Below, piece by piece: positions 4,790-64,000 of a DNA stretch of 64,000 nt. Position 1 is the stretch's first letter. Each line of letters opens with the position of its first letter. The position numbers and the translations under genes are program-made. Below the pieces are notes generated by a model. That model made no database searches. It had not been told where the DNA came from and saw only the letters and a program-made list of their open reading frames with translations. Source of the DNA: Escherichia phage A73; sequence record OP778609. One strand, given 5' to 3'.

Positions 4790-5221
4790 ATGGCTAAAGC
4801 ACATGTTGTAACTCTCGAAGGTAACTACTCTGATATCGTACTGGGCCGTGTTGTTGCATTTGGTGACACTGGTTGGAACTTTGAAGAAGTAGAAATGGAT
4901 TATACTGCTGATCTGGTCGCAGGTCTGCTGGTTAAAGCTGATGGTACTCCGGCTGCTGTTGCAGACGCTGCTGACGTTTACGGTGTTCTGGTTGACCGTA
5001 AAGTTCTGCCTGGTGTTACCAAGCATGACGGCGCTACCCCGATGGCTGGTGAGAAGCTTCCTATGACTATCGCTGTTCGTGGTCTGACCCTGAACGCAAC
5101 CAAACTGGTCTACGCTGACGGTACTGCAATTGACGCTGCTGGTAAACTGGCTCTGTCTAAAGCTGGAAACCAAGTGACTGACCGTGTAGTAGCTACCGAA
5201 TTCCTGGGCGCTGTCCTGTAA
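4790..5221 (+). CDS. Head decoration protein (lambda gpD-like, putative)
   Basis: 143-aa Ala/Gly/Val-rich protein immediately upstream of the major capsid gene, in the D-E arrangement. Confidence 0.5.
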   Translation: MAKAHVVTLEGNYSDIVLGRVVAFGDTGWNFEEVEMDYTADLVAGLLVKADGTPAAVADAADVYGVLVDRKVLPGVTKHDGATPMAGEKLPMTIAVRGLTLNATKLVYADGTAIDAAGKLALSKAGNQVTDRVVATEFLGAVL

Positions 5222-61756: not shown

Positions 61757-62014
61757 TCAACTAAAAATTAAAGAAACAACGTGGTAAATTACTTGGGGAA
61801 AGATAACTACGAAGTACAGATCAACAAATCCAGAGATAAAGTGATAAGCCTTCAGTTTTGTACGTTTACCTTTGTAAAAATCAGAGATGATTTTGAAATA
61901 TTTATAAAGATTCCTTAAAAGTGCAAAACCGATCAACCCCAACCCACTAAGAACCACAACAAAAAGTGAAAACTGGACGTCCGCACTAAAAACACCAATA
62001 ATAAGATCTAACAT
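61757..62014 (-). CDS. Small membrane protein
   Basis: 85 aa with two hydrophobic helices. Confidence 0.4.
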   Translation of the reverse strand: MLDLIIGVFSADVQFSLFVVVLSGLGLIGFALLRNLYKYFKIISDFYKGKRTKLKAYHFISGFVDLYFVVIFPQVIYHVVSLIFS

Positions 62015-62289
62015 TAAATTTCCTCCAATTCAGACTCTACGATGTAAAAACCTTGTAATATTTCATAAACCCACGTATTAAAATGGTCAGAATATACTAT
62101 ACCCTTTACACTATAAGTTTTATTTTCAAACTTAACTGTTGGGTTATTGACCCTCACCACAGTATCACTTGCAAACTTGGGCATACCGTGCTTTGAAATT
62201 GCTTCACGATCAACTTTATAAACATTCCTCCCAAAGAACTTTTCCAGTGGGCAAAGATTATTCTCAAAATCAGTACCCATAGTCAACAT
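62014..62289 (-). CDS. Hypothetical small protein
   Basis: 91-aa ORF. Confidence 0.35.
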   Translation of the reverse strand: MLTMGTDFENNLCPLEKFFGRNVYKVDREAISKHGMPKFASDTVVRVNNPTVKFENKTYSVKGIVYSDHFNTWVYEILQGFYIVESELEEI

Positions 62290-62536
62290 CCCCTGTAATT
62301 ACTGAAGTGCTTTTCTTTGTCTTACCATTTGAAGTCTTGATATGAGTATCTGCATGAGGACAATACACCACATTCAGACTCATATCTCCTGGGTTAGCTT
62401 TGAGACGATAAATCTTACAACCTGCCTCTTTCATTTCTTGCGGTAAAATGTAATTAGTAGTCTTATCGACAACGCCCTTTTGATCACAACCGGAAATGAA
62501 ACATACCATAAAAATCGCAGCAATAATCTTTTTCAT
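62270..62536 (-). CDS. Putative lipoprotein
   Basis: 88 aa; N-terminus MKKIIAAIFMVCFISGCDQ with lipobox ISGC. Confidence 0.45.
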   Translation of the reverse strand: MKKIIAAIFMVCFISGCDQKGVVDKTTNYILPQEMKEAGCKIYRLKANPGDMSLNVVYCPHADTHIKTSNGKTKKSTSVITGDVDYGY

Positions 62537-62883
62537 TTTACCTCCATCATAAATACTTTAACTTTTCGTACCTCTAATCTTACTTTATTAGAGCCTTGAA
62601 GTCTATTTCTTTTTTCAATTGCGTCATTAATGTCGCCATAGAAGTAGTGATCCTTACCTATTGTTGGTATTCCATTGCCGCCTTGCATAGCCAGTGTATA
62701 CATTTCTTTTCCACCTTGCAACCCTTTTGATACTTTTTCTTCAAAATATTTATTGAATTGGGTTGGTGAAGTGTCAATTTCTACATCATCTTCCCATCCC
62801 ATAACTTTATCCCAAAAACGGTCAATCTTGTCAAGAACTTTGTTACTAATCTTTTTAATCTTCTTCAACATAATCTTCCCCAT
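62533..62883 (-). CDS. Hypothetical protein
   Basis: 116-aa ORF. Confidence 0.4.
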   Translation of the reverse strand: MGKIMLKKIKKISNKVLDKIDRFWDKVMGWEDDVEIDTSPTQFNKYFEEKVSKGLQGGKEMYTLAMQGGNGIPTIGKDHYFYGDINDAIEKRNRLQGSNKVRLEVRKVKVFMMEVK

Positions 62884-63343
62884 TATTTATTTGGATACCG
62901 AAACGATTTTCATTAGTGGAAAAGAAACCATTTTCCATGCGGCGAATCTCTTCTTTCATCACTTCCTGCATCGTTAATTTAAGGATTTCTTTGTTTAATT
63001 TTGGCTTAACTTCACGGAGCTTGTCAAGAAGTTTTTCCATTTCTTCTTTTACTTTTTCTTCCTCATTTTCTACCTCTAATTGGTCCATTGCATCTTTACA
63101 AACACAGCAATGGCCCACAACTCTTAAAATATGATTTTGTATAGGTAATGCTTTTCTTCCACAATACCCACAAACAATAGACCCACCGGAGGACCGGGCA
63201 TCTATCGTCAATGTAGGCTTGGCCCCTTCTGCTTGAGAATGCCAAGTCTTTTTACCCTGGTAATCATACATAAAGAATTCGTAGGATCTTTCATCAACGT
63301 GGTCTTCGAGCATATGTAAAGTTCGTGTATTGAAATGTTTCAT
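62855..63343 (-). CDS. Hypothetical zinc-binding protein (first gene of - strand block)
   Basis: 162 aa; CGYCG...HCCVCK Cys cluster, charged coiled-coil region; GAGGAG RBS; lies just downstream of a - strand promoter. Confidence 0.45.
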   Translation of the reverse strand: MKHFNTRTLHMLEDHVDERSYEFFMYDYQGKKTWHSQAEGAKPTLTIDARSSGGSIVCGYCGRKALPIQNHILRVVGHCCVCKDAMDQLEVENEEEKVKEEMEKLLDKLREVKPKLNKEILKLTMQEVMKEEIRRMENGFFSTNENRFGIQINNGEDYVEED

Positions 63344-63372
63344 TTTTAACTCCTCGTCGTTTGTATGTGCTA

Positions 63373-63401
63373 ACTATACGAGAACTTGAGGGGAAGATCA
63401 A
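63373..63401 (-). promoter_or_regulatory. Sigma70-like promoter for the - strand early block
   Basis: On - strand TTGATC-N17-TATAGT, ~30 nt upstream of the ATG at 63343. Confidence 0.55.
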
Positions 63402-63404
63402 TAC

Positions 63405-63432
63405 TTGATTTGCATTTTATTTTCATTATACT
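63405..63432 (+). promoter_or_regulatory. Sigma70-like promoter for the + strand HD-domain gene
   Basis: TTGATT-N16-TATACT on + strand, back-to-back with the - strand promoter; AAGGAGA RBS before the ATG at 63464. Confidence 0.5.
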
Positions 63433-63463
63433 GTGCACATCTAAAACGAGAAGGAGATGACAA

Positions 63464-64000
63464 ATGAGTCAAGATAAAGAGTTAGCCATTGCGATATCCG
63501 TAGCTGCTTCTGCCCATGTTGACCAAGTAGATAAAGGGGGGAATATCTATATTCTTCATCCTTTGCAGGTGATGCAAACATTGCAGCAAAAGGGAAGGGA
63601 AGATTTAATGGCAGCAGGAGTTTTGCATGATGTGATTGAAGATACTGAAATCACTATGGAACACCTCTTTAAAAAGGGGATTTCAGAAAGAACCTTAGTG
63701 ATTGTCGATGCAGTGACAAAGAAACGTAAGCAATCTTCATCTGATTACCTAGAGGGGATTTTAGAGAGTGAGGGTGCTTGTCATGTTAAGCTTGCGGATC
63801 TTAAACACAACTTAGATATTCTGCGAACTTGTAGCACCACAGAAAAAGACTTGCAACGGGTCAGGAAGTATGTAACAATGCACTTGTTGATTACGGAGAT
63901 GGTTGATTGGTATGAAAGTATCGGAAGGTATCTCGATTATTGTGATTCTTTTGCCTATTCTAGCTATCTCGACGAACGTAAAGAATTTGTTCAGAAACTT
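63464..64000 (+). CDS. HD-domain protein, RelA/SpoT-type hydrolase-like (3' partial)
   Basis: ORF runs off the window end (absent from ORF track); HD signature ...AHVDQVDKGGNIYILHPLQV...AAGVLHDVIEDT. Confidence 0.6.
   Translation, partial: MSQDKELAIAISVAASAHVDQVDKGGNIYILHPLQVMQTLQQKGREDLMAAGVLHDVIEDTEITMEHLFKKGISERTLVIVDAVTKKRKQSSSDYLEGILESEGACHVKLADLKHNLDILRTCSTTEKDLQRVRKYVTMHLLITEMVDWYESIGRYLDYCDSFAYSSYLDERKEFVQKL

Follow-up and report, generated by a model that had tools for sequence, protein, structure and literature searches.

CapRel, FaRel, PhRel, and other toxic alarmone synthetases form a recognized class of abortive-infection defense, and phage small alarmone hydrolases (SAHs) have been proposed as a counter-measure, from co-expression tests only. 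The stand-alone SAH of Salmonella phage PVP-SE1, of the PbcSpo subfamily, neutralized all five synthetases tried in Escherichia coli (CapRel, PhRel, PhRel2, FaRel, and FaRel2), and it was proposed that incoming phages could bypass alarmone-based abortive infection with such hydrolases (Jimmy et al. 2020, PMC7229694). Aph1 of Bacteroides caccae is a (p)ppApp hydrolase with no detectable (p)ppGpp activity (Ahmad et al. 2023, PMC10083569). Six of its residues (D24, R96, D116, R119, K133, and Y134) set its family apart from (p)ppGpp hydrolases, a D24R/R119A double mutant gains ppGpp activity, and 12 of 12 purified homologues hydrolyzed ppApp, with modest ppGpp activity in two (PMC10083569). Here, we analyze a 64,000-nucleotide stretch of Escherichia phage A73 (sequence record OP778609; hereafter the window), at the right end of which lie a predicted divergent promoter pair and a gene for an HD-domain protein (hereafter the HD protein). 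On balance, the overall explanation that we favor is that the gene encodes an Aph1-type hydrolase with a role in counter-defense, and that it lies behind a sigma70-type divergent promoter pair.

Other members of the RelA/SpoT homologue (RSH) superfamily are also informative. ATfaRel of Cellulomonas marina, a type IV antitoxin and PbcSpo-type SAH, and PaSpo of Salmonella phage SSU5, from another SAH subfamily, are stand-alone RSH hydrolases that detoxify toxins producing (pp)pApp as well as toxins that pyrophosphorylate tRNA; both are likened to the HD protein by description only. ATfaRel is encoded beside its toxin, reportedly degrades (p)ppGpp as well as ppApp, and restores aminoacylation of pyrophosphorylated tRNA. 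The hydrolase domains of Rel and SpoT, and metazoan MESH1, share with the HD protein the superfamily, the metal site, and 3'-pyrophosphohydrolase chemistry.

The HD gene starts at the ATG at 63464, and no stop interrupts its 179 codons before the window ends. An earlier note on this DNA placed the start at 63465, but that frame is full of stops. The same note correctly described the gene as truncated by the window end and absent from the track of open reading frames (ORFs), where ORFs running off an end are unlisted. Extending beyond 64000, as it recommended, is possible through Escherichia phage A5-4, which is 99.4% identical to positions 62000–64000 at the DNA level; four further E. coli phages of Vequintavirinae are 90–96% identical over the same region. 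The full ORF in A5-4 (A54_47) has 564 nt and encodes 187 amino acids (aa), the first 179 of which are identical to the translation of the window, and eight codons plus the stop lie beyond the window. An identical protein is already present in public databases as a "hypothetical protein," and a copy in UPEC06 (99.5% identical) is annotated as "GTP pyrophosphokinase."

The sequence of the HD protein carries the hallmarks of the superfamily. The HD signature that the earlier note recognized is present in the translation as ILHP (residues 30–33) and LHDVIEDT (residues 54–61). The profile searches suggested there also bear it out: Pfam HD_4 matches residues 10–91 with 32.7 bits (curated cut-off of 27.2), and among NCBIfam RelA/SpoT models, TIGR00691 (spoT_relA) matches through its N-terminal hydrolase region (2.7e-15). 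The protein also matches phrog_990, "metal-dependent phosphohydrolase" (1.4e-52). In a set of 57 homologues, H32, H55, E59, D60, K109, D112, N116, and Y136 are invariant, D56 is present in 56, and D23, K24, and R121 are nearly invariant (D23 in 52 and R121 in 53). The catalytic residues (H32, H55-D56, E59-D60, K109, D112, and N116) align with those of both Aph1 and Rel, and the full-length protein has all catalytic and metal-binding residues, including the His and Asp residues whose loss the earlier note considered. An AlphaFold2 model built with 50 homologues is all-helical (mean predicted local distance difference test score of 92.5; predicted template modeling [TM] score of 0.89) and comprises a single hydrolase domain and a helical hairpin; synthetase and regulatory domains are absent. 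The conservation of these residues makes it very likely that the HD protein is an active RSH-type hydrolase.

By sequence, family profile, and modeled fold, the HD protein appears to group with the Aph1-type (p)ppApp hydrolases. Its best solved relative is Aph1 (7smg; E = 6e-22, 81.7 bits), whereas chains of Rel, SpoT, and MESH1 score 49 bits or less. The HMMER alignment pairs residues 8–143 with residues 9–141 of Aph1, and a profile of the family scores 189 bits against Aph1, covering positions 3–147, versus 86 bits against the best Rel. The C-terminal third of Aph1 (Y90–E143), which its authors used to collect the family (PMC10083569), has homology in the window protein. In Foldseek comparisons, the model superimposes on 7smg with a TM score of 0.88–0.91 and a root-mean-square deviation of 1.4–1.8 Å, versus 0.66–0.68 and 3.4–3.8 Å for human MESH1. 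The insertion that Rel hydrolase domains carry (∼11–15 residues after the TK motif) is absent from the HD protein, as it is from Aph1.

The residues associated with specificity follow the same pattern. The Aph1 signature maps to D23, G98, D118, R121, K135, and Y136 of the HD protein; five of the six residues are kept, including both specificity residues. Conversely, the residues with which Thermus thermophilus Rel contacts guanine (R43, R44, S45, and T153) align to D23, K24, G25, and I119, and in every aligned Rel, Arg takes the place of D23 and an MRT motif that of LDI. Because the Aph1 specificity residues are kept and the guanine-contacting residues of Rel are replaced, adenosine nucleotides are the best supported substrate class, and a preference for adenosine 3'-pyrophosphates over ppGpp is probable.

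The earlier note had instead read the protein as a (p)ppGpp hydrolase that counters the host stringent response. In a version of this reading, the enzyme would act mainly on (p)ppGpp and lower the host alarmone so that the stringent response does not limit phage production. We consider this unlikely. Membership in the RelA/SpoT hydrolase superfamily is in its favor, as is the label guanosine-3',5'-bis(diphosphate) 3'-pyrophosphohydrolase that relatives often bear, but such labels are homology transfers rather than tests. The dual activity reported for ATfaRel and the modest ppGpp activity of two Aph1 homologues also fit it. However, the similarity to Aph1 in sequence, profile, and fold far exceeds that to Rel, SpoT, and MESH1, the guanine contacts R43, S45, and T153 are replaced, and D23 and R121 correspond to the very pair that had to be mutated in Aph1 for any ppGpp activity. 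The substrate proposed in the earlier note is thus not supported, and neither is an action against the stringent response as it was stated, as tests of the PVP-SE1 SAH, a probable orthologue, point to the neutralization of toxic alarmone synthetases.

Somewhat less probable still is that the substrate is another 3'- or 2'-phosphorylated adenosine compound (NADPH, PAPS, pAp, or a defense signal), as for MESH1, and that the link to alarmones is incidental. RSH hydrolases have been described as chemically versatile, human MESH1 has been crystallized with NADPH and PAPS (5vxa and 9chy), and the overlap of the HD gene with a thymidylate-kinase-like gene in some relatives hints at nucleotide metabolism. 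Against these stand a pocket that matches that of Aph1 and not that of MESH1, the invariance of Y136, a proposed contact to the pyrophosphate of the substrate, and the neutralization of toxic alarmone synthetases by the PVP-SE1 SAH (PMC7229694).

The relative most relevant to function is gp220 of PVP-SE1, which is syntenic and 47% identical to the HD protein over 154 residues. Based on this identity and synteny, the HD protein probably belongs to the PbcSpo subfamily of SAHs. Both phages are Vequintavirinae, and in both the gene follows the same back-to-back promoter site and is upstream of a gene for a MoxR-like ATPase. The two proteins share the D, D, R, K, and Y signature residues and even the Gly at the position of R96. 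They differ in length and in context: gp220 has 169 aa, its C-terminal tail being short, and is separated from the promoter by a thymidylate-kinase-like gene.

We suggest that a role in counter-defense against toxins that synthesize (p)ppApp or pyrophosphorylate tRNA is a reasonable, if not firm, expectation. In the proposed mechanism, host RNA polymerase with sigma70 would start rightward transcription ∼21–25 nt before the ATG, with the HD hydrolase as first product. By analogy, a metal (Mn2+) would be held by H32, H55, D56, and D112, together with E59 and D60, and the 3'-pyrophosphate would be removed from adenosine nucleotides. The adenine side of the pocket would be formed by D23, D118, R121, K135, and Y136, matching that of Aph1, and likely substrates would be (p)ppApp and possibly the 3'-pyrophosphorylated CCA end of tRNA. 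Modified tRNA ends in an adenosine 3'-pyrophosphate, with which an adenine-specific pocket would be compatible. The products of toxic alarmone synthetases (FaRel, CapRel, PhRel, or Tas1-type), whether triggered by infection or delivered by competitors, would be undone, and shutdown of the infected cell would be averted.

Several observations weigh against the Aph1-type assignment and the role derived from it. Signature residue R96 is not kept; it aligns to G98, a position with Gly in six of 57 homologues, among them most of those from Vequintavirinae, and Arg in 31. R96 is the only signature residue that was not placed near the active site of Aph1 (PMC10083569). Given the activity toward ppGpp reported for ATfaRel and for two of 12 Aph1 homologues, the HD protein may have dual specificity. 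The connection to the published neutralization tests passes through gp220, which is probably the SAH that was tested; the article text (PMC7229694) gives no locus tag, and the match relies on 36 kb of PVP-SE1. Last, the C-terminal hairpin is absent from Aph1, so the oligomeric state and substrate range may differ. With regard to the former, the Aph1 tetramer is said to depend on the lack of extra C-terminal helices (PMC10083569).

In the model, the hairpin has 51 residues and is made of the extended last helix (127–157) and a return helix (162–186). Most bacterial homologues have 138–145 aa and end ∼10 residues after the invariant Tyr, whereas A5-4-like, Certrevirus, and metagenomic proteins have 40–51 residues there. 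A model of the protein of phage phiTE matches that of the HD protein over its full length (TM score of 0.91). The tail is weakly conserved and, by reading of the sequence, has no strong net charge. It is conceivable, although doubtful, that the hairpin (residues ∼140–187; only in A5-4-like phages, Certrevirus, and one metagenomic relative) gives the enzyme the 3'-pyrophosphorylated CCA end of tRNA as its target in place of free (p)ppApp. If so, the protein would be a tRNA-repair enzyme that counters CapRel-type immunity, and it would be expressed early if the rightward promoter fires early.

Related sequences are present in 435 phage records, usually labeled as "metal-dependent phosphohydrolase." Carriers include Vequintavirinae, Aeromonas T4-like phages, Pseudomonas Pakpunavirus, and temperate Streptococcus phages; a recent study of Pakpunavirus left the preference of its copy for ppGpp or ppApp undecided. 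The enzyme family is already known, as are tests of the version of a related phage, and nothing here will be unexpected to a specialist. What is added is that the enzymes of Vequintavirinae carry the Aph1 specificity signature, which predicts specificity for adenosine rather than guanosine and argues against labels such as "ppGpp pyrophosphohydrolase" and "GTP pyrophosphokinase" that are common in this phage gene family. These phages grow on E. coli K-12 and therefore offer a tractable system for studying the role of the enzyme in real infection and in tRNA repair.

The 120-bp non-coding gap that separates the HD gene from a block of minus-strand genes (63344–63463) has the elements of two divergent promoters (table 1). 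As the earlier note described, TTGATC on the minus strand and TTGATT on the plus strand are placed back to back; they are 3 bp apart. Its divergent promoter pair at the strand switch also stands: each -35 has a -10 partner, the elements are sigma70-like, and the geometry is conserved across lineages. Each promoter scores 9/12, with a spacing of 16–18 nt, an A at position 2 of the -10 element, and a T at position 6. On the right side, the promoter scan itself selects TATACT, which overlaps the alternative TACTGT. Predicted transcription starts, near 63439–63443 on the plus strand and near 63366 on the minus strand, are ∼75 bp apart, and each leader would have ∼21–25 nt with a strong ribosome-binding site at its end.

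Taken by themselves, the hexamers make a poor case for promoters. They are individually weak, and such sites are not enriched: the 2-kb region has five, versus 6.4 ± 2.7 in shuffles, and the entire window has 149 sites scoring at least 9/12. The core TCAANNNTTGA is likewise not enriched (four occurrences versus 2.7 expected). Because motif matches within the window are no better than chance, the case for promoters rests on conservation.

We compared homologous gaps of Certrevirus (CR8, CB7, CR9, and F4M1E), Mydovirus (KPP-1 and AV124), Seunavirus (PVP-SE1), TH18, SSBI34, and a metagenomic relative. A pair of -35 elements with a gap of exactly 3 bp is present in the A5-4 group, Certrevirus, Mydovirus, Seunavirus, TH18, and the metagenomic relative, with SSBI34 as the sole exception, and the geometry is thus kept in at least five diverged lineages of Vequintavirinae. 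In all gaps compared, there is a TAnnnT-type -10 element at 16–18 nt on both sides. Leftward -10 elements of relatives, at 16–17 nt from the -35, are TATAGT, TATATT, GATAAT, GATACT, or TAAATT. In an alignment of six lineages, 15 of 120 columns are invariant, 12 of which fall within the four hexamers (Fisher p = 8e-8). They include TCAA of the leftward -35 (63398–63401), TTG and the last T of the rightward -35, and T63429, A63430, and T63434 in the rightward -10 region. Because the last three form the TAnnnT core of the TACTGT frame, TACTGT may be the true rightward -10, instead of or alongside TATACT. Compensating changes are also evident: Mydovirus, Seunavirus, and TH18 have a perfect TTGACA as the minus-strand -35, and in Certrevirus, plus-strand hexamers are weak but a TGn extended -10 is present. 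In PVP-SE1, the depositors annotated a promoter at the homologous minus-strand site.

The pair resembles promoters described in relatives. A published analysis concluded that Certrevirus phages are without an RNA polymerase of their own and use sigma70-like promoters (PMC7344957). The early promoters of Certrevirus and the promoters of PVP-SE1 are like those predicted in the window in their dependence on host RNA polymerase and in having -35 and -10 elements 16–18 nt apart. Relative to the published Certrevirus consensus, AAAA(N3-4)TGTTGAC(N17-19)TATAAT (PMC7344957), the predicted pair in the window is weaker. A literature search on Vequintavirinae found no usable transcriptome or mapped transcription start; the promoter activity and timing of expression of the pair are predictions. 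The conserved back-to-back geometry is a handy landmark for annotating genomes of Vequintavirinae.

Two side observations concern the spread of this geometry. PVP-SE1 has a second divergent pair annotated by its depositors, between gp173 and gp174 (positions 5034–5093 of L012, the stretch of this phage that was compared), with AGTCAA-TGG-TTGACA and again a gap of 3 bp; the design therefore recurs within genomes of Vequintavirinae. Salmonella phage SSBI34 (L011, 2292–2434) keeps the divergent layout but not the 3-bp core, and its -35 elements are ∼27 bp apart. The rightward promoter of SSBI34 is similar to TGTTGAC-N17-TAATAAT, an early-promoter consensus reported for Certrevirus.

The ATCAA-N3-TTGAT core could alternatively be mainly an operator for a dimeric regulator of both units rather than simply two -35 elements, a reading that is compatible with promoters but that we regard as improbable. 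The core forms an inverted repeat, no other part of the intergenic region is as well conserved, and in the A5-4 group the dyad symmetry reaches through the -10 elements and leaders. However, in every lineage both sides carry a TAnnnT -10 at the proper spacing, with changes that compensate one another. Conservation of the extended symmetry is confined to the A5-4 group, and SSBI34 has divergent promoters without the inverted-repeat geometry. The spacing and compensation of the -10 elements argue that the core is at least a promoter pair.

The symmetry itself can be described further. In the window, the entire intergenic region (63343–63463) is quasi-palindromic about 63403, and the two promoter-leader units have GCACAT in common downstream of the -10, as well as AAACGA(CG/GA)AGGAG in their leaders (alignment score of 16 versus −9.5 ± 4.7 in shuffles). 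Only the A5-4 group and one metagenomic relative show this symmetry clearly. We considered the extended dyad as a separate element and rejected it, as it reaches significance in the A5-4 group (0 of 2000 shuffles) without being conserved in other genera.

Table 1. Positions of genes and predicted control elements around the strand switch of the window.
Feature	Position	Strand	Remarks
162-aa gene	62855..63343	minus	First gene of the minus-strand block; from the ORF list; corresponds to A54_46 in A5-4
Shine-Dalgarno of 162-aa gene	63350..63354	minus	AGGAG; by reading of the sequence
Predicted leftward -10	63373..63378	minus	TATAGT; 17-nt spacer; promoter scan
Predicted leftward -35	63396..63401	minus	TTGATC (GATCAA on the plus strand); promoter scan
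Predicted rightward -35	63405..63410	plus	TTGATT; 3 bp from the leftward -35; promoter scan
Predicted rightward -10 region	63427..63434	plus	Overlapping candidates TATACT (63427-63432, spacer of 16) and TACTGT (63429-63434, spacer of 18)
Shine-Dalgarno of HD gene	63452..63456	plus	AGGAG; 7 nt before the ATG; kept in the A5-4 group and CR8
Putative Aph1-type small alarmone hydrolase, coding sequence	63464..64000	plus	Codons 1-179 of 187; translation, HD_4, phrog_990, match to 7smg, and model

The rightward promoter would serve the whole rightward gene cluster and not the HD gene specifically. The earlier note had the promoter drive the HD gene, which is indeed first on the plus strand in A73, but the promoter is not dedicated to it because relatives carry other genes between the two. 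In PVP-SE1, Mydovirus, and TH18, a thymidylate-kinase-like gene is located there. In CB7 and phiTE, the HD domain is the C-terminal part of a 413-aa protein, the first 235 residues of which are an HNH homing endonuclease (phrog_953, 8.8e-74).

These arrangements differ in detail. In Pectobacterium phage CB7 (L007, 1751–2992) and in phiTE (protein K9L4V7), the HNH endonuclease seems to have entered directly behind the promoter, giving an in-frame fusion. The possibility that the region before the HD domain in these two phages is an unknown toxin or partner domain is ruled out by its identity as a homing endonuclease. The intervening gene of Seunavirus and Mydovirus encodes 330–342 aa and overlaps the start of the HD gene (PVP-SE1 L012, 25791–26819; L010, 1512–2504; L014, 1497–2504); it is labeled thymidylate kinase (phrog_10920), yet has no Pfam match. 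The HD gene of Escherichia phage vB_EcoM_TH18 (L013, 2402–2713) encodes 103 aa, its match ends at residue ∼83, and it lacks K109, D112, N116, R121, and Y136. The gene has the appearance of a decayed remnant and hints that some lineages can dispense with the HD gene.

The same layout recurs in Certrevirus, Mydovirus, Seunavirus, and the metagenomic relative: the minus-strand block is followed by a gap of ∼120 bp, by the HD gene, and then by a MoxR-like ATPase. Aph1, the closest characterized relative, protects against a MuF-fused toxin, Apk2, of a Bacteroides prophage, but it is very improbable that the HD protein is likewise an immunity protein against a (p)ppApp-synthesizing toxin of the phage itself, as the 34 minus-strand ORFs of the window have no Pfam RelA_SpoT synthetase domain, there is no E-x-Q-x-R-T/S motif in six frames of the 64-kb window (of a genome of ∼145 kb), the genes nearby are unrelated in every relative (HNH endonuclease, thymidylate-kinase-like gene, small ORFs, and MoxR-like ATPase), and most Aph1 homologues are also not beside a toxin (PMC10083569). 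In this the HD gene differs from Aph1, being at the head of an operon of a lytic phage with no adjacent toxin; the Aph1-type enzyme that we propose also differs, as described above, in G98 and in the added hairpin of ∼50 residues, and resembles Aph1 in its HD/ED/D/N catalytic set and five of six signature residues, all as read from its sequence.

Downstream, relatives always have the HD gene a few genes upstream of genes for a MoxR-like AAA+ ATPase and a DUF2201 metallopeptidase/VWA-like protein (A5-4 stretch L001, 7025–10966; L015, 4609–7438). In the metagenomic relative, the HD, MoxR-like ATPase, and DUF2201 genes directly adjoin. In A5-4, the gene after the HD gene encodes 177 aa (phrog_8242, of unknown function) and overlaps the HD stop codon (ATGA). 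A PADLOC scan of the HD protein, its neighbors, and the 162-aa gene gave nothing credible, and an Rfam scan of 63200–64000 gave no match to an RNA family.

On the other side of the switch, the minus-strand block spans ∼29 kb (34215–63343). It encodes three FRD2-family proteins, DNA polymerase A, DnaB-like and PIF1-like helicases, a C-5 cytosine methylase, an HNH endonuclease, and a SleB-like cell-wall hydrolase, and its promoter-proximal end has small ORFs of unknown function. The block thus mixes early-type and replication genes. The earlier note was right to place a minus-strand block at the switch, but calling it an early block is an oversimplification, since the polymerase, helicases, methylase, and cell-wall hydrolase are encoded further along. 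The 162-aa protein at its head matches phrog_13698 (5.6e-24), a family without an assigned function. It has a Cys-rich, four-Cys CxxC...CCxC motif (CGYC...CCVC) followed by an acidic, highly charged, coiled-coil-like helical tail, and it may be an early host-takeover factor.

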